A stretch of DNA of 64,000 nucleotides from Escherichia phage vB_EcoM_CRJP21 (OQ708376.1); one strand, 5' to 3'; counted from the stretch's first letter, positions 15,897 through 25,062 are shown. Made by a program: numbers and translations. Notes: a model not told the origin generated them from the sequence alone.

Positions 15897-16592
15897 ATGG
15901 TTGAACAATTCATGTTTGGTGGTTATGCTAATGGCGAAGTACGTAACATTTCTATTCCTTACGTAGTTGAGAAAGTTAATGGTTCAGAACGTACATATGA
16001 TCTAGCATCTCGTATGATGCAAGACCGTATCATTTTCCTTGATACTGATTTCAATGATCAAATGGCACATATCATCAAACAACAATTGGTATGGTTAGAC
16101 TCACAAGGTGATTCCCCTATTACATTCTACATTAGTTCACCGGGTGGTTCAGTACACGCAGGTTTGGGTATTGCAGATGTTGCTAAGTCTTGTATTTCCC
16201 CAATTCGCACTGTAGTTATGGGTTATGCAGCATCAATGGGTTGCTATACACAATCTGTTATTGGGACTAAAGGTTTCCGTTTAGGTGGTAAACGCTCATA
16301 CTTCATGTGTCACCAAGTAAGTTCTGGTACACAAGGTCTAATTACAGACCAGAAGATTTCCCTACAACATTCTGATGCACTGAATACATTGTTGACCAAA
16401 GAAATTGCAGAAGCTGTAGGTGTATCACATGAACAATTACTAAAAGATGCTGACCGCGATTTGTGGTTAAATGCAGAAGAAGCACTTGAATATGGTGAAC
16501 ATGGTTTCATTGATGGTATTATTCTTGGACCACGTAACGAAGAAGGTAAGTACTTAGTTAAGCGTCGCGGCGGTGTAGAAGAGTGGGTGTAA
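15897..16592 (+). CDS. ClpP-like serine peptidase
   Basis: ISSPGGSV, catalytic Ser in GYAASMGCY and His in MCHQ aligned to ClpP. Confidence 0.75.
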   Translation: MVEQFMFGGYANGEVRNISIPYVVEKVNGSERTYDLASRMMQDRIIFLDTDFNDQMAHIIKQQLVWLDSQGDSPITFYISSPGGSVHAGLGIADVAKSCISPIRTVVMGYAASMGCYTQSVIGTKGFRLGGKRSYFMCHQVSSGTQGLITDQKISLQHSDALNTLLTKEIAEAVGVSHEQLLKDADRDLWLNAEEALEYGEHGFIDGIILGPRNEEGKYLVKRRGGVEEWV

Positions 16593-17505: not shown

Positions 17506-18054
17506 ATGCAGCAATATAATTTAACTGAAGAACAAAGTGATATTTTTTACCATCATATGTTTTTAATTGATGAATTTGCTTTAAAAATTAATTCCGAAGC
17601 AATTGATATATTGAAGAAATGGTATAGTTGTTATAATAAAAACAAAAAGTGGTATTGGTTTAATAGAAATATAAAATCATTTCTAAAAACAATCACATAC
17701 ACTGATAGTATTGAGTTAATACATAGTTCTATTGGATATAGTTACTTAACTAAACACAACAGTACTATGATGTTATCAGGGTTTAAAGTTGAAAGAATTT
17801 CCAAGTTAACAGGTTTGTCATTAGAAACAATTCTATATGATATTGAGAAAATTTGGAAAACTATAGAATTAATGCATAAAAATATGTCATTCATATATAG
17901 AAATTATGATATATTCACTGATGTACGACAATATCATAATAAACCGTATGTATTGGATGAAAAGTACTATAATCATATGGAAGTTTGTTCTAAACTCGTT
18001 GATGATTGGAATCTAGAGGGACATAATGAAATACACACACCTAAGTATAGATGA
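17506..18054 (+). CDS. hypothetical protein (very AT-rich, N/K/I/Y-rich)
   Basis: ORF 17500-18054; ATG at 17506. Confidence 0.45.
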   Translation: MQQYNLTEEQSDIFYHHMFLIDEFALKINSEAIDILKKWYSCYNKNKKWYWFNRNIKSFLKTITYTDSIELIHSSIGYSYLTKHNSTMMLSGFKVERISKLTGLSLETILYDIEKIWKTIELMHKNMSFIYRNYDIFTDVRQYHNKPYVLDEKYYNHMEVCSKLVDDWNLEGHNEIHTPKYR

Positions 18055-18550
18055 TACTAATATCTGGTTAGATAACATAATCAAGACATTAGAATTAATT
18101 AAACTTACATTACAAAAAACTACTGATATTGAAATTAATATTAAACAAGAAATATTAAACTATTATCATAGAAACAAATATAGCACGTTTATCTCTAAAT
18201 TAATTTATGGATTATATGATATTGAAGATATTTGCATCGGTTACAGTACTGGTATTTGCTTCACAGTTAATGGTTTAAAAAATGATTTAAATTTCAGACT
18301 TTCCGATGAAGAGCAAGATTTTCGTAGATTTTGTGATAATATTATGGATACAGATAAAATTACATTTGTTATTGAATTAAATCAAACGTGGTCCACATAT
18401 GCAGATAAACCATTTGAAATTAATGAAACAGATGTGTTAAACTATATTCGAGTTATGAAAATTCATGATTTGTGTAAAAACGCATTGTTAAGTATTGGAG
18501 CTTATAATGAAACATACGACTTGGTTGAAGATAGCAGAAGTAGTTGCTGA
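18026..18550 (+). CDS. hypothetical protein (very AT-rich)
   Basis: ATG 18026 after GAGGG. Confidence 0.45.
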   Translation: MKYTHLSIDDTNIWLDNIIKTLELIKLTLQKTTDIEINIKQEILNYYHRNKYSTFISKLIYGLYDIEDICIGYSTGICFTVNGLKNDLNFRLSDEEQDFRRFCDNIMDTDKITFVIELNQTWSTYADKPFEINETDVLNYIRVMKIHDLCKNALLSIGAYNETYDLVEDSRSSC

Positions 18551-18986: not shown

Positions 18987-19240
18987 CAGTAATAATTATT
19001 ATTGCTTTTCTAATAACAGTGTTTTTCATTTTTATGTTATATATAGTTGCTATGGATGAACCTAATACTTCTTTTCGAAATTATGAAGTTCGTTTTTCTG
19101 CACAAAATAATAAGTACTATATTGTAAACTGTATACACCGTAGTGAGAAAAGGGTAACAAGTAGATTTGGATTTACCATTTATTATAAAGACCGAGTAGA
19201 AGCTGATATGATTTGTCAGAAGCTTAATACTGTAGAATAA
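18983..19240 (+). CDS. small membrane protein
   Basis: N-terminal hydrophobic helix IIIIAFLITVFFIFMLYIVA. Confidence 0.45.
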   Translation: MTVIIIIAFLITVFFIFMLYIVAMDEPNTSFRNYEVRFSAQNNKYYIVNCIHRSEKRVTSRFGFTIYYKDRVEADMICQKLNTVE

Positions 19241-19268
19241 AAAAAGGAGCCGTATGGCTCCTTTTTTG
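19239..19268. terminator. bidirectional intrinsic terminator
   Basis: AAAAAA-GGAGCC-gtat-GGCTCC-TTTTTT between convergent genes. Confidence 0.65.
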
Positions 19269-19646
19269 TTAACCAGGGAGGTTACAATAATACAAATCCC
19301 AAGGGTGATATTTCATCGCACCAGTACTCAATTTAATTTTATGAAACTGGAATGATTCGGCAAATGCACTATCGTCAATCTTAATACAAAAAGTGTTTTT
19401 GGCTAGAGTTGGTGCAATTTCCAATGCTGTTTTAGATGCATCTAATCTAATTTTATCTTTATCATAACTAGTGATAGTTACAAAACGATAAACATTAAAA
19501 TCAGTATCAATGAGATCGTAAACACAACTAGAACGTTGATTAAAGATGTTCAAGTTATATTTCAATTCACCGTTTATATTAGCTGCGGTTACACAAAACC
19601 CGCCGATATTGAATGGTAGTTTACCTTGTGCTGCGATAGCTTTCAT
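19269..19646 (-). CDS. hypothetical protein (only reverse-strand gene)
   Basis: 125-aa ORF; AAGGAAA RBS on - strand before ATG at 19646. Confidence 0.5.
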   Translation of the reverse strand: MKAIAAQGKLPFNIGGFCVTAANINGELKYNLNIFNQRSSCVYDLIDTDFNVYRFVTITSYDKDKIRLDASKTALEIAPTLAKNTFCIKIDDSAFAESFQFHKIKLSTGAMKYHPWDLYYCNLPG

Positions 19647-19716: not shown

Positions 19717-19745
19717 TTGACAAAACATCAGTGGTATGATATGAT
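19717..19745 (+). promoter_or_regulatory. sigma70 promoter TTGACA-17-TATGAT
   Basis: TTGACA 19717-19722, TATGAT 19740-19745. Confidence 0.5.
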
Positions 19746-19807
19746 CTGTTATAAACTGTACACCTTAAGTTTTATTTTTAAAAATTTGAGTTAAGTACAG
19801 AAAAAGT

Positions 19808-19836
19808 TTGACTTAAGTGTTTAAGTACTATATTAT
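19808..19836 (+). promoter_or_regulatory. sigma70 promoter TTGACT-17-TATTAT
   Basis: TTGACT 19808-19813, TATTAT 19831-19836, ~35 nt before gene 19872. Confidence 0.45.
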
Positions 19837-19871
19837 TTATATCTTCCTAAACAAAATTGAGGACTTGTTAT

Positions 19872-20480
19872 ATGAAAAGACTATGGCTTGAAGTGATACA
19901 AGCAGCGATGTTTCTATTGTTAATAAATTTTCCAGCCAGTGCTGGTATTGAAAGTAAAAATGTGATAAAGTATAATCCTGAAACCCGAAATGTATATTTC
20001 ATATCAGATATTACAGATGGGTCACTCAAGAGAATGATAGAGTTGTATGATAAAGAACACTATGATACCATCACAATTACATCTCCTGGTGGTGATTTTG
20101 ATGCAGGTATTCGAATGGCAAACTTTGTTAGAGACAATGGGATAAATTTAATTGTTTCTAGGTATTGCAATTCAGCATGTACTGTGGTATTCTTTAGTGT
20201 ATCTCCCGAAAAGCGATATATGACAAATCGCTCAGTACTGGGTCTTCATAACATTTCGATTAAAAGTAATGTTACTGATGGTGATAATTCATTTGTGTCT
20301 GTAAGACAGCTATCAACTTTTACCGAAGAAATGGCAACAAAGGTAGGTTTCCTTTTTTCACTATATGCAGCAAATGGAATCCCACCAGAAGTTCTATTTA
20401 GAGTTAGTCGTTCTCGTGGTGAAGATGTTGTAATATTAACAAAACCAGAACTGGTTTTTTACGGTTCAGTCAAACAATAA
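19872..20480 (+). CDS. secreted ClpP-fold serine peptidase-like protein
   Basis: signal peptide MKRLWLEVIQAAMFLLLINFPASA; ITSPGGDFDAG aligned to ClpP SPGG region. Confidence 0.5.
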   Translation: MKRLWLEVIQAAMFLLLINFPASAGIESKNVIKYNPETRNVYFISDITDGSLKRMIELYDKEHYDTITITSPGGDFDAGIRMANFVRDNGINLIVSRYCNSACTVVFFSVSPEKRYMTNRSVLGLHNISIKSNVTDGDNSFVSVRQLSTFTEEMATKVGFLFSLYAANGIPPEVLFRVSRSRGEDVVILTKPELVFYGSVKQ

Positions 20481-20550: not shown

Positions 20551-20811
20551 ATGACAAACATCCAAAACTTGACATCTATTATTTTTTATGCTACTGTAGT
20601 AATGTATGCTACAGTTATTTTTCTAACAGTTTTCATTTACAAAGATTATCGTAATGGCTTTATTGATCCAACTACAATGAAGTTCAATTCAAAATTCGAA
20701 GCAATAATTTATTATGTACTATCAACTTCATACTTGGTGTGCCTAATGTTGTTAGGAGCACTAATTTATATCTTATACACAACATTATTTGCAATTGGAG
20801 CTATTTTATGA
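20551..20811 (+). CDS. small membrane protein
   Basis: two long hydrophobic segments. Confidence 0.45.
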   Translation: MTNIQNLTSIIFYATVVMYATVIFLTVFIYKDYRNGFIDPTTMKFNSKFEAIIYYVLSTSYLVCLMLLGALIYILYTTLFAIGAIL

Positions 20812-21401
20812 CCTGTATTATTGCACACACTGACGGAGTAAGTTCTTTTATTGCTGGGGATAAGTTAGGAAGCAATGGATTTACAAAAACTGTTCAAACT
20901 GAGCCAAAGGTATTCGAGAAAGAATTTATCAAGTTACATGATGATGGACTAACTAGAACTAAAGAAGTAATGGCATTGGGTTATACTACATCATTTCGTA
21001 TGGGTCAGTTGTTAAATTATAACCTTAATTTACCTGAACAAGATGCTAGTCAAACATTTTCACAATATTTGGTTCTTAAAGTTATTCCAATCATTCGTCA
21101 AATGTTTAAAGAAGAATGGGGTGCACGAGATGCATCACAAGATGTAGGTGGTGGACAATTTATCATTCTCCACAATCATACAATCTATGAAGTTCAAGAA
21201 GACTTTTCAGTACTACAACCTAAAACAAGAATTACCGCAGTAGGTAGTGGGACATATCATGCAATTGCAGCAATGCAAGCATATATTGAAGTTGAGAACG
21301 AATCTAAAAAACCACTACACGAACGTATCAAATCAATTTTTAAAATTGTTAGTGATAATGTAACAAGCGTAAGCGAAGAGTTTGATGTTTTAAAATATTA
21401 A
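20808..21401 (+). CDS. HslV / proteasome beta-like Ntn peptidase
   Basis: ATG 20808 gives MTCIIAHTDG (Thr at position 2 as in HslV); FIAGDKLGSNG and TAVGSGTYHAIAAMQA parallel HslV. Confidence 0.55.
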   Translation: MTCIIAHTDGVSSFIAGDKLGSNGFTKTVQTEPKVFEKEFIKLHDDGLTRTKEVMALGYTTSFRMGQLLNYNLNLPEQDASQTFSQYLVLKVIPIIRQMFKEEWGARDASQDVGGGQFIILHNHTIYEVQEDFSVLQPKTRITAVGSGTYHAIAAMQAYIEVENESKKPLHERIKSIFKIVSDNVTSVSEEFDVLKY

Positions 21402-21428: not shown

Positions 21429-21623
21429 ATGATGGCATACACAATTTATGAATGGGTTTTGAGTTTTTTTATAGTTTTTTCTATTGTTGTAATTTATAAC
21501 AATGCTAAATGCTTATATAGGGACTTGAAATCCAATGGTTATCACAAAGATAATAATTTTATGTATGCCTATCATATTGGAATCATTCTGTTATTATCAA
21601 TATATTTAATTGTTTTTTTATAA
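21429..21623 (+). CDS. small membrane protein
   Basis: 64 aa, hydrophobic. Confidence 0.4.
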   Translation: MMAYTIYEWVLSFFIVFSIVVIYNNAKCLYRDLKSNGYHKDNNFMYAYHIGIILLLSIYLIVFL

Positions 21624-21632
21624 GGATTGAAT

Positions 21633-22385
21633 ATGATATCAGAAAAATTTATAAGCAATGAAGGTAAAAAGCGATTACTGATTATATCAGGTGCAGGACT
21701 TTCTGTTGAAAGTGGTATGGAACCTTTTCGATTTGATGATGGTTTGTGGGATACATTTAAAATTAATGATGTATGTAACATTGCTAGTTTAACTACGAAA
21801 TATCACGTTGTTCATTCCTTCTATAATACATTACGTGTAAAATTGGGTCAATGCAAACCCAATGCAATGCATTATTTTATAAAATCGTTAGAAGATCAAT
21901 ATGGTGATTGCTTCCTTCATATGACTTCTAACATGGACGATCTTTATACTCGTATTGGTGGTCATGAGCTTAAACTTCATGGAAACTTGTGCGAAGTTAT
22001 TGAAAATTATAGTATCAATTCCGATGATTATAATGTTATTAACTGCGGATACGAACCATACATACCAAAACATGATGTTTTTGCCAAACCAAATGTAGTA
22101 ATGATTGGAGAATATCATCGTTATGTTGATGGTATTCGCTTACCAATTTACGAAGAACGAAATAATGTGTTGAAATCTCTTAATGAAAATGATACAGTTA
22201 TTGTAATTGGTAGTAGCGATACAGTACTGGTATGGTCGAGATTAGCAGCAGCATTACCATGTTATAGTGTTAATGTTAACATTCGTAAAAATGATAATGA
22301 TTTTTTGTTTAATGAAAAAGTTATCAAGCCAGCAACCAAAGCAATACCGCATCTAGAGACTATAATTAAGGAACGTATGAAATGA
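21633..22385 (+). CDS. Sir2-family (sirtuin/CobB-like) NAD-dependent enzyme
   Basis: GAGLSVESGMEPFR, HMTSNMDDL, catalytic LHGNL, VVMIGE, VIGSSDTV; lacks canonical CxxC zinc tetrad. Confidence 0.75.
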   Translation: MISEKFISNEGKKRLLIISGAGLSVESGMEPFRFDDGLWDTFKINDVCNIASLTTKYHVVHSFYNTLRVKLGQCKPNAMHYFIKSLEDQYGDCFLHMTSNMDDLYTRIGGHELKLHGNLCEVIENYSINSDDYNVINCGYEPYIPKHDVFAKPNVVMIGEYHRYVDGIRLPIYEERNNVLKSLNENDTVIVIGSSDTVLVWSRLAAALPCYSVNVNIRKNDNDFLFNEKVIKPATKAIPHLETIIKERMK

Positions 22386-22933
22386 GTGTTAAAGAAGTTC
22401 CCTTTGGTGAATATGGCACACGTGCAAATTTTGTATTTTGTTATTTCTTTGCAAGAAAATGCAACCCTTACAAAAACTATGAGTTGAATGATATACCAGA
22501 AGTAAATTTAGTATTACTGCAATTACGATGGGATGGTCTTCTTGGTGGATGTGGTGGAACCGTAGAAAGTACTGATATCTCACTAGAAGATGCGTTGCGT
22601 CGTGAAGTTCAAGAAGAAATGGATTACAATATTTTTGTTTCCCATCTTCGACCACTCAAAACTTTTGAAATTTACCCAGGTGCAAACAGTCACAGTTTTA
22701 GCTATGAAGTAACCTATGACGAGTTGAAACACATTAGAGATGGATACACTAATGCTAAACATGCAAGTGCAGAAGTTGCTGGTGTAAATTTATGTCATAT
22801 TTCGCGTTATTCTAAGGGACAAAATCGAGAAGCGGGATATAATAATCTTATGACACAGAACTTCATCGGTACAGCAAAACAAGAATTGGAGTATCTGGTT
22901 CAAAAAGAAAACTTACTAATTAGTTATCTATAG
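22382..22933 (+). CDS. Nudix-like hydrolase (divergent Nudix box)
   Basis: GGTVESTDISLEDALRREVQEEMDY approximates GX5EX7REUXEEXGU with a 3-residue insertion. Confidence 0.4.
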   Translation: MSVKEVPFGEYGTRANFVFCYFFARKCNPYKNYELNDIPEVNLVLLQLRWDGLLGGCGGTVESTDISLEDALRREVQEEMDYNIFVSHLRPLKTFEIYPGANSHSFSYEVTYDELKHIRDGYTNAKHASAEVAGVNLCHISRYSKGQNREAGYNNLMTQNFIGTAKQELEYLVQKENLLISYL

Positions 22934-22942
22934 GAGTTTAAC

Positions 22943-23263
22943 ATGTCTTACTCAATGTTTTTGGATGATATTCGTGATGCAAATCTATATTATCCAAACC
23001 AAGATATGGTGGTATGTCGTGACTTTAAAAGTGCATGTGAATATGTTATTGAAAATGGAATTCCAGCATTTGTATCATTCGACCATGACTTGGGTGATGT
23101 GAGCGAAGACGAAAAGACTGGATATTCTTTTGCTAAGTTTCTTATTGATTATATGTTTGATAATAATATTAAAGAACCGTTTGAGTACTTTGTTCACAGT
23201 AGTAATCCTGTTGGTAAAATTAATATTGAAACATACTTAAACAATGGATTTAACTCATTATGA
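22943..23263 (+). CDS. hypothetical protein
   Basis: 106-aa ORF. Confidence 0.45.
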   Translation: MSYSMFLDDIRDANLYYPNQDMVVCRDFKSACEYVIENGIPAFVSFDHDLGDVSEDEKTGYSFAKFLIDYMFDNNIKEPFEYFVHSSNPVGKINIETYLNNGFNSL

Positions 23264-23562
23264 TTCAAACACACATCAAAAGTCTTATTTGTACTGTTCT
23301 GTTAGGTGCAGGAGTTCTTTGGTTCGGACAGTATCACGAGAACACTAAGCGTACCAACATTCACTACAATACCGCAGAAGTTGTTAGTTTAGGACAATGT
23401 AGCGAGTCCAAATGTTCATTTATGTATAAAACCCAAAGTGGTGAAGTACGTAATGGACTATCAAGAGAACCAGTTTCAATTGGTCAACTTGTTTACCAGG
23501 AGTGCTGGGAAGAAAAGGTTCGAGGTTCACGTTGCTATGTTGAATACGAACCAAATATGTAA
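23260..23562 (+). CDS. membrane-anchored hypothetical protein
   Basis: N-terminal TM LICTVLLGAGVLWFGQY. Confidence 0.45.
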   Translation: MIQTHIKSLICTVLLGAGVLWFGQYHENTKRTNIHYNTAEVVSLGQCSESKCSFMYKTQSGEVRNGLSREPVSIGQLVYQECWEEKVRGSRCYVEYEPNM

Positions 23563-23622
23563 TAATCCGAGTCAATAACATTAGTCGAGTACAAGGATGT
23601 ACTCATAACTCAAGGATGTTTT

Positions 23623-25062
23623 ATGAAAAAATATACAATTGACACAAACGTACTACTATCTGACCCTAATGCATCTATTGCTTTTGATGGTGCTGCAATC
23701 ATTCTACCATTTACAGTACTGGAAGAATTGGATTCAATTAAGAGTCGTAATGTAGATGTTTCACGCGATGCTCGTGTTGCTATTCGTAACATTGAAGCAA
23801 TTATTGCAGATGCATCACATGATGAGATTAGTAGTACTGGTGTTAATATTGCTGATGTTCATACCAATATGAATCCTGATAGCAAATTGTTTGTTATTAC
23901 AAACGAAGAAGCTGAAGCACTAATTCGTACTAAAGGTTCAGAAGAGAAAGTTCAAACCCTTCTCAAAAGCACAGTACCTGATGATAAAATCATTCTGGTA
24001 GCTTTAGCAACAGAATCAGTACTGGTAACTCGTGATATCAACATGCGTATCAAAGCACTAAGTTATGGTGTCGAGGTACAAGATTATCGCCATGATATTG
24101 TTATTGGTGATAGTGATTTGATTCACATTGGTCAACACCATTTGGAAATTAATTTTTGGGAAGTATATAGCAACTTATCCAATACTAATATTCAATCCGA
24201 ACAAGTTGGTCGTCGTTTGTATCATTACATTTCTAAAAGCTTGATTGAACATTTGCTTCCACAAAATCTATGCATCGGTGATTATCTATATGATGATGCA
24301 GACGTATTATTTGTGTACGAAGGTCAATCAGCAATTGAGGAAGATGATGGAACACTAACACCAGAAGATATTTTGGTATTCCAAGATATTGGACAATCAG
24401 TAGCTTTACGTGCTAAAGTATGGGATATTAAAGCAAAGAATATCCAACAAGCACTCGCCATCAACAGTATTCTCGATCCTGATGTACATCTAACAGTACT
24501 GCTAGGTTCTGCTGGTACTGGTAAAACACTAATTACGATTGCTACTGCATTAGAATTAGTACTGGAAAAACGTAAATACGACCGAATCATCTTCTCTAAA
24601 ACTCAAGACTCACAGTTTGAAGATATTGGTTTCTTGCCAGGTTCAGAAGCAGAAAAAGTGATTCCATTCTGTGGAGCCGCAATTGACGCGTTAGAGTTTC
24701 TTCATAAAGATGATGCTAACCCTCAAGGTAGTATTGAAGAGATTATGAAACGTAATGTTATTCAATTTAAAGCACTAAACTTTGTACGTGGACGTTCATT
24801 CACCAACACTATTCTAGTAGTTGATGAATTCCAAAACATTACACCTGCACAAGCTAAAACAATCTTGACACGAGCAGGATTAAACTGTAAAGTAGTAATT
24901 ATGGGTAACTTGAGTCAGATTGACAGTAAGTTTATTAGTCCTGTTAACAGTGGTTTGACATATGTAACTGAGAAGTTTAAAGATTGGGCAGGTTGTCGTG
25001 TCATCGAACTAGAAGGTGTTGTTCGTTCACCACTTGCAGAATTTGCTGAAGAAAATATGTAA
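23623..25062 (+). CDS. phoH: PIN-domain + PhoH-like ATPase
   Basis: N-terminal PIN (IDTNVLL), Walker A GSAGTGKTL, Walker B VVDEFQN. Confidence 0.8.
   Translation: MKKYTIDTNVLLSDPNASIAFDGAAIILPFTVLEELDSIKSRNVDVSRDARVAIRNIEAIIADASHDEISSTGVNIADVHTNMNPDSKLFVITNEEAEALIRTKGSEEKVQTLLKSTVPDDKIILVALATESVLVTRDINMRIKALSYGVEVQDYRHDIVIGDSDLIHIGQHHLEINFWEVYSNLSNTNIQSEQVGRRLYHYISKSLIEHLLPQNLCIGDYLYDDADVLFVYEGQSAIEEDDGTLTPEDILVFQDIGQSVALRAKVWDIKAKNIQQALAINSILDPDVHLTVLLGSAGTGKTLITIATALELVLEKRKYDRIIFSKTQDSQFEDIGFLPGSEAEKVIPFCGAAIDALEFLHKDDANPQGSIEEIMKRNVIQFKALNFVRGRSFTNTILVVDEFQNITPAQAKTILTRAGLNCKVVIMGNLSQIDSKFISPVNSGLTYVTEKFKDWAGCRVIELEGVVRSPLAEFAEENM

Follow-up and report, generated by a model that had tools for sequence, protein, structure and literature searches.

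A predicted exported ClpP-fold Ser-His peptidase of Asteriusvirus jumbo phages and its relatives in phages and bacteria

The closest described systems to the protein considered here are ClpP, SppA and NfeD. ClpP (MEROPS S14, PF00574), of which E. coli has one and the phage studied here another, is a cytoplasmic peptidase with a Ser-His-Asp triad, whose N-terminal axial loops dock an AAA+ unfoldase and which forms tetradecamers from heptameric rings. SppA (MEROPS S49) uses a Ser-Lys dyad, is anchored in the membrane and, in E. coli, is made of tandem domains. NfeD, or STOPP, represented by the N-terminal domain of Pyrococcus horikoshii PH1510 (PDB 2deo/3bpp), also has a Ser-Lys dyad, together with transmembrane segments, a C-terminal OB-fold and a stomatin partner gene. 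As for phages, they export small blocking proteins, such as Imm and Sp of T4 and Llp of T5; to our knowledge, no phage-encoded periplasmic protease has been characterised.

In the window (the whole stretch of DNA that was analysed, 64,000 nucleotides of Escherichia phage vB_EcoM_CRJP21, OQ708376.1), the coding sequence at 19872-20480 on the + strand (ATG at 19872, TAA at 20478-20480) encodes a 202-aa protein, predicted to be an exported ClpP-fold Ser-His peptidase. It resembles ClpP in its alpha/beta fold, its SPGG block, the placing of the nucleophile Ser on a strand-to-helix turn with a His 25 residues on, and a handle-type helix. It differs from ClpP in that an export signal replaces the N-terminal region and helix A, in that Ser101 and His126 are found without a conserved Asp, and in that two near-invariant cysteines flank the nucleophile; to judge from the sequence, the axial loops that dock an unfoldase, and the cytoplasmic location, would be missing as well. 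Whereas SppA has a Ser-Lys dyad and tandem domains, the 202-aa protein conserves a His and no Lys, and its predicted mature part is a single 178-aa domain. It has none of the NfeD features, since it ends at residue 202 without any further domain, and no SPFH or stomatin gene was found among the listed neighbours of its gene. The protein therefore fails defining features of ClpP, SppA and NfeD alike; it is most like ClpP in fold and Ser-His geometry, and seems most like SppA and NfeD in location and ATP independence.

The gene and its family

A Shine-Dalgarno sequence, GAGGA, can be read at 19859-19863 (+), 8 nt 5' of the ATG. A mechanical list of open reading frames puts the start at a TTG, at 19857; all annotated relatives start at the ATG. 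The surrounding 2.3 kb are 99.3-99.9% identical to the corresponding DNA of 17 Asteriusvirus jumbo phages of E. coli and Salmonella, including PBECO4, JP4, phAPEC6, G17 and Sharanji, and 88.7% identical to that of 121Q. At the protein level, identity is 100% with PBECO4 gp097 ('protease') and with phAPEC6 gp346c ('hypothetical protein'), and 92% with 121Q gp473, labelled 'protease (ClpP-like)'; the JP4 counterpart is CDS0556 ('protease'), and phrog_26024 'protease' is matched end to end (residues 1-202, E 3.6e-119). The open reading frame is a genuine gene of an Asteriusvirus jumbo phage. A 'ClpP-like protease' label was already known from the public records of 121Q and PBECO4, and the JP4 and Sharanji papers contain no discussion of the gene. 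To that label the present analysis adds a predicted signal for export, a Ser-His site that is flanked by cysteines and has no conserved Asp, the wide extent of the family and the conservation of a promoter. The present evidence is thus a sharper annotation of an already labelled gene, and not a new mechanism.

Using tblastn, we found orthologues in 49 phage records, which span the Rak2-like jumbo phages that infect Escherichia, Klebsiella, Salmonella, Erwinia and Xanthomonas, with weak partial matches in one Vibrio phage and one Bradyrhizobium phage; a scan of IMG/VR with the phage-type alignment returned 121Q itself only. Across the Rak2-like phages the gene keeps its position after the dCMP deaminase gene, with a divergent tail/virion gene between the two in most cases. 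Word-indexed homologue searches retrieved few proteins, mostly unnamed. The wider family became visible with an exhaustive profile search of representatives, which matched 1889 representatives of 50%-identity clusters at E ≤ 0.001, with bacterial relatives in Massilia, Duganella, Vibrio, Aliivibrio, Alteromonas, Shewanella and others. The bacterial members are about 230-300 aa long and have a C-terminal extension, and they contain CxSSCANY where the phage protein has CNSAC. Motifs and N-terminal signals are common to the 202-aa protein, phrog_26024 and the bacterial SxGG...CxS[SA]C...H proteins, which places the protein, as a prediction, in an unnamed exported family composed of phrog_26024 and the bacterial CxSxC proteins.

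For 27 members of this family, neither Pfam nor NCBIfam gave a dedicated family model, and PADLOC gave no match and no link to a defence system. We also examined bacterial neighbourhoods, taking one genome per species and clustering the immediate neighbours. Among the 57 loci in which the gene was recovered (with crude calling of open reading frames in high-GC genomes), a given neighbour was shared by a handful of related loci at most, so that the bacteria provide no clue to an operon or a substrate. Literature searches on COG3904 and on periplasmic ClpP-like proteins found no characterised member of the family; COG3904, a 'predicted periplasmic protein', may presumably be the same family as the 202-aa protein.

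Predicted export signal, fold and active site

A preliminary description of this DNA had proposed a cleavable signal peptide at the N-terminus. Residues 1-24 (MKRLWLEVIQAAMFLLLINFPASA, encoded at 19872-19943, +) are indeed a predicted Sec signal peptide according to the -3/-1 rule and to hydropathy, with cleavage expected before Gly25, the first residue of the GIESKN that follows. The segment has a basic MKR start, an uninterrupted hydrophobic core of about 13 residues (VIQAAMFLLLINF), a Pro at -4 and Ala-Ser-Ala at -3 to -1, that is, the basic n-region, the h-region of 7-15 residues and the small residues at -3/-1 that characterise Sec/signal peptidase I substrates. The Kyte-Doolittle maximum over 10 residues reaches 2.52, while the corresponding values of the phage ClpP and of E. 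coli ClpP are 1.05 and 1.59, respectively. In the AlphaFold2 model, residues 2-23 form a helix, and residues 19-28, with a pLDDT below 50, are the linker to the domain.

The same behaviour is found across the family. We counted conservation in 148 distant representatives, those listed out of the 1889 matches: in 128 of the 148 there is a hydrophobic stretch at the N-terminus, and a lipobox-like motif (for example LAGC or LSAC) is found in about 35 of the 148. Textbook signals are also present in the orthologues of XaC1 (MKLLKYIVTVFIFTLSISSANA, followed by G) and of Hallingskeid (ending in IPSSA, followed by E). The canonical features of a cleavable signal are therefore present in the 202-aa protein, as the preliminary description would have it, and recur in the wider family. 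Sequence rules and family-wide behaviour together predict that the protein is exported, and the conserved cysteine pair described below also fits an extracytoplasmic protein; we infer from these features that export and cleavage actually take place.

A membrane-anchored form is nevertheless retained as a rival, because Glu7 and Gln10 are invariant within the presumed signal among close relatives, something seldom seen in signal peptides, and because the hydrophobic segment of the RaK2 orthologue ends in LIFPSHD, without an AXA site. The N-terminal helix would then be an uncleaved signal anchor, tethering the same catalytic domain to the inner membrane and facing the periplasm like SppA and NfeD, and the enzyme would act on substrates close to the membrane, for instance remnant signal peptides or membrane proteins. 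A hydropathy maximum of 1.79 over 19 residues, borderline for a transmembrane segment, agrees with such an anchor, as do the two small membrane-protein open reading frames that flank the next gene. However, the core extends over only some 13 residues before the Pro at -4 and the A-S-A preceding G, which make a textbook signal peptidase I site, and short cleavable signals of the classic type, or else lipobox-like motifs, are found in many relatives. We consider the anchored form unlikely, and retain the cleaved, periplasmic form as the preferred reading.

The AlphaFold2 model, a monomer built from 11 relatives (mean pLDDT 82.9, pTM 0.73), consists of the N-terminal signal-like helix, then a beta hairpin, and, starting near residue 30, an alpha/beta domain modelled with confidence that has a long 'handle'-type helix at 144-167. 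When the model was compared with the PDB using Foldseek, every top match was a ClpP (probability 1.0, TM 0.6-0.7), ClpP1/ClpP2 heterocomplexes included, and the closest folds are peptidases (ClpP, SppA), before CoA enzymes. In BFVD the RaK2 orthologue ranked first (TM 0.81), and viral ClpP-like proteins came next. Structure prediction thus recovered the ClpP fold that had been suggested from a short motif, and not an unrelated one. Sequence profiles are much less telling: the protein scores 17.5 bits with Pfam CLP_protease (PF00574), under the cut-off of 20.2, 13.5 bits with NfeD1b_N (PF25145; cut-off 40) and 15-25 bits with the NCBIfam ClpP models, far below their cut-offs of 228-251, so that no Pfam or NCBIfam model is over threshold. 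The Peptidase_S49 profile gave no match at E up to 1, a phmmer search of PDB sequences returned noise only (fluorescent proteins, alcohol dehydrogenase), and a profile search of the PDB gave weak matches to NfeD and ClpP, in the SPGG region only.

The motif in question, ITSPGGDFDAG, corresponds to residues 68-78 (20073-20105, +). Within it, S71-P-G73-G74 (20082-20093, +) aligns with INSPGG of ClpP, the 'SPGG' block of the oxyanion-hole region. Further on, alignment and model place the predicted nucleophile Ser101 between two conserved cysteines, in C99-N-S101-A-C103 (20166-20180, +); the modelled structure has S101 exactly where strand 92-100 gives way to helix 102-109. The predicted general base, His126 (20247-20249, +), aligns with the catalytic His of ClpP. 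In a BLASTP comparison with the phage ClpP (29% identity over 100 residues, E 7e-5), YCNS-AC is found over YAASMGC and GLHN over MCHQ, with Ser and His aligned, and Ser101 and His126 therefore occupy the positions of the ClpP nucleophile and base. An hhalign comparison with E. coli ClpP also aligned the SPGG block and His126, and the Ser-to-His spacing is 25 residues in both proteins. The alignment of the SPGG block with ClpP, put forward in the preliminary description, is hence confirmed and extends to the nucleophile and the base.

These residues are near-invariant in the family. S71, G73, G74, C99, S101, C103 and H126 are invariant across 27 divergent homologues. In the 148 distant representatives listed, S71, G73 and G74 are each kept in 146, C99 and S101 each in 145, C103 in 146 and H126 in 139 (8 of the other 9 being gaps), and 140 of the 148 contain the CxS[AST]C motif. 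In contrast, the position equivalent to Asp171 of ClpP (184/185) is variable and often non-acidic, so that the third residue of the triad is not conserved, and no invariant Lys was found across the family, K157 being invariant among close relatives only. The family signature, SxGG...CxSxC...H, therefore indicates a Ser-His dyad. A disulfide between C99 and C103 is probable once the protein is in the periplasm; it is plausible because the -2 and +2 positions of nucleophile turns pack against each other. The idea of a periplasmic ClpP-fold serine peptidase is supported by these observations, with the caveat that the Asp of ClpP is not conserved, and the protein would then be catalytically active.

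Could the fold serve another chemistry? As an esterase or amidase, an exported ClpP-fold protein might hydrolyse a lipid or cell-wall substrate, or it might be a binder without catalytic activity. That neither an acidic third residue nor a Lys is conserved would suit such a function, as would the fact that the literature searches found no characterised family member to compare with. However, Ser and His are at the exact catalytic positions of ClpP and near-invariant, as is SxGG, so that hydrolysis through an acyl-enzyme is favoured, and the closest folds are those of peptidases, which rank before the CoA enzymes. For a non-catalytic binder in particular, conservation of Ser and His in 139-145 of 148 clusters is not expected. 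We therefore hold a non-peptidase to be decidedly unlikely, and continue with the peptidase reading.

Transcription and gene neighbourhood

A bidirectional intrinsic terminator, AAAAAAGGAGCC-gtat-GGCTCCTTTTTT, is found at 19240-19266, where ARNOLD also annotated a terminator in G17. It lies between the upstream operon of the + strand and a convergent virion gene of the - strand, and terminates both, so that a new transcription unit begins with the protease gene. Because this strong bidirectional terminator stops upstream transcription, the protease gene requires a promoter of its own. The preliminary description had given it two in tandem, and both sites are present, on the + strand, inside the 225-bp divergent intergenic region: a distal sigma70-type promoter at 19717-19745 (TTGACA-17-TATGAT, with an extended -10 TG, 11/12 matches) and a proximal one at 19808-19836 (TTGACT-17-TATTAT, 10/12 matches). 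The DNA is AT-rich, and in the 2.3-kb region we found 13 sigma70-like matches where 14.2 are expected from shuffled sequence. Since such matches are no commoner than in shuffles, the reality of the promoters rests on their conservation. In five relatives (121Q, UE-S1, A4, the metagenomic locus L003 and Erwinia phage Hallingskeid), the TTGAC of the proximal site is invariant and its -10 ends 31-38 nt before the start codon. This promoter was kept although the flanking DNA has diverged, and although the protein identity with Hallingskeid is only 31%. At the distal position, 126-134 nt 5' of the ATG, a TG-type site is found in the window, 121Q and L003 only, and is absent from UE-S1, A4 and Hallingskeid. 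A promoter proper to the gene is thus conserved, whereas the tandem pair exists in part of the clade only.

Over the whole window, sigma70-like sites with at least 10/12 matches number 51 on the + strand and 28 on the - strand, and those with at least 11/12 matches 14 and 1, respectively. This strand bias follows the main coding direction and suggests that many real host-type promoters are present there. For the T4-type late promoter core, TATAAATA, shuffled sequence predicts 12.7 copies in the 64 kb of the window, and only 3 are present. One copy, at 19834-19841 (-), overlaps the -10 of the proximal sigma70 promoter and faces the divergent virion gene, about 190 nt off; the + strand has the two others (33369 and 38039). 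The arrangement at 19834-19841 may be a back-to-back early/late promoter pair, or may be due to chance. A direct repeat, TTTGA(G/C)TTAAGT, is also present in two copies 22 bp apart at 19785-19818 (+). The second copy holds the proximal -35, a third element, TTAAGTAC, comes after it, and the sequence is the same in 121Q. An operator or a weak third promoter might explain this repeat, and so might chance.

In the Rak2-like phage CBB, RpoD-like promoters have been interpreted as markers of early regions, with a T4-late-like motif tied to structural and virion genes (PMC5259590). A literature search found no Asteriusvirus transcriptome, and it is from the promoter classes of CBB that we infer early expression of the protease gene.

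The divergent gene at 19269-19646 (-) encodes a virion structural protein of 125 aa (phrog_33171). Downstream of the protease gene, a conserved 86-aa open reading frame with two hydrophobic segments of transmembrane length (20551-20811, +) overlaps, through its stop, the next start (ATGA); an open reading frame of 86-87 aa is found at the equivalent position in L003, 121Q, UE-S1 and A4. The next gene (20808-21401, +) encodes a 197-aa HslV-like Ntn-hydrolase with the N-terminus MTCIIAH, which matches phrog_1040 ('peptidase HslV family', E 4e-24), and NCBIfam HslV models below threshold only. The preliminary description had placed the protease gene 0.3 kb from this HslV-like gene. The distance is right, the start at 20808 being 327 nt past the protease stop, but the gap is not empty, as it holds the 86-aa open reading frame, and the adjacency exists in Asteriusvirus only, as does the downstream pair of the 86-aa open reading frame and the HslV-like gene. 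A functional link as a general feature is unsupported, because RaK2, XaC1 and Hallingskeid have a cytidyltransferase gene in that place.

Other features of the neighbourhood may be mentioned. A 64-aa open reading frame (21429-21623, +), which also has two transmembrane-length segments, flanks the HslV-like gene together with the 86-aa one; neither had a Pfam match, and the 86-aa one had no PHROG match. It is followed at 21627-25062 (+) by a run of SIR2-like, Nudix (Nudt16-like), cREC_REC and PIN/PhoH genes, while at the equivalent position RaK2, XaC1 and Hallingskeid have the cytidyltransferase, with a nicotinamide phosphoribosyltransferase nearby. Both downstream sets look NAD- or nucleotide-related and may have a bearing on counter-defence. 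On the upstream side, a 174-aa open reading frame (18026-18550, +) is a single coding sequence in JP4, and is split in the PBECO4 RefSeq record into gp101 and gp100, both labelled 'virion structural protein' (L001, 2826-3351); the split is probably due to a frameshift or a sequencing difference in PBECO4.

The phage ClpP, a cytoplasmic paralogue of 231 aa without a signal peptide (15897-16592, +; PF00574, 141 bits), is encoded 3.3 kb upstream of the protease gene. Three protease genes of self-compartmentalising type, encoding ClpP, the 202-aa ClpP-like protein with its predicted export signal, and the HslV-like hydrolase, are therefore present within 5.5 kb. Mass spectrometry of phAPEC6 virions found 62 proteins, among which neither gp346c, identical to the 202-aa protein, nor the HslV-like gp345c is listed, whereas the divergent neighbour gp347 was detected with 75% coverage, and gp227c appears as 'prohead core scaffold and protease' (PMC7247149). 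For the ClpP at 15897-16592, PBECO4 and JP4 have the annotation 'head maturation protease', a label that may be wrong, because the phAPEC6 virion list has gp227c as a separate protein for that function.

Is the 202-aa protein itself a cytoplasmic ClpP-type subunit, partner of the phage ClpP or of host ClpX or ClpA, or else a head maturation protease? Structural matches to ClpP, including the ClpP1/ClpP2 heterocomplexes, the vicinity of a true ClpP and the head-protease label given to orthologues in some GenBank records speak for it, but we find it highly improbable, given a signal sequence where ClpP has its N-terminal region and helix A, a cysteine pair and family-wide signals or lipobox-like motifs that point outside the cytoplasm, an Asp that is not conserved, absence from the phAPEC6 virion, which lists gp227c instead, and sigma70-type promoters where the virion genes of CBB have a T4-late-like motif. 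We therefore rejected two labels for the 202-aa protein and its orthologues: 'ATP-dependent Clp subunit', in view of the signal sequence, the cysteine pair and the missing conserved Asp, and 'head maturation protease', in view of the virion list and the promoters.

Proposed mechanism and meaning for jumbo phages

The reading that we consider probable is that of an early-transcribed, Sec-exported, ATP-independent ClpP-fold Ser-His peptidase, completed by a disulfide and located in the periplasm, from a so far uncharacterised family of the ClpP, SppA and NfeD group. Host sigma70 RNA polymerase would transcribe the gene, using the promoter or promoters proper to it. The protein would be exported via Sec and cut after Ala24 by signal peptidase I, and the domain of about 20 kDa would fold like ClpP in the periplasm, with Ser101 as the nucleophile, His126 as the base and the SPGG block supplying the oxyanion hole. 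The cysteines flanking Ser101 would most likely form a disulfide, so that the enzyme would be completed only after export. Because the periplasm has neither ATP nor an AAA+ partner, the enzyme would, like SppA and NfeD, do without an unfoldase, and its substrates would therefore be peptides or exposed, unfolded segments. Our best guess is that it targets envelope or periplasmic proteins or peptides of the host during host takeover.

More precise proposals deserve less credit. The roles in superinfection exclusion or lysis timing that the preliminary description had mentioned are guesses, and any specific role, superinfection exclusion for example, appears unlikely at present. A more ambitious reading, which we regard as doubtful, is that the protein represents a distinct peptidase family in the ClpP/SppA/NfeD group, ATP-independent, with a Ser-His dyad and a Cys-x-Ser-x-Cys disulfide staple, active only after export, and exported early against a specific envelope or periplasmic protein of the host. 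If that reading were true, the enzyme would, for example, block superinfection, remodel the envelope or disable a defence located there.

A periplasmic protease used as a weapon would, if real, be a tool without a known phage example, and its gene is found at the same genomic position in Rak2-like jumbo phages of Escherichia, Klebsiella, Erwinia and Xanthomonas. The identity of its substrate would give a function to a large bacterial family and would show a ClpP fold working without an unfoldase, and it might reveal a new route by which phages alter the envelope of their host.
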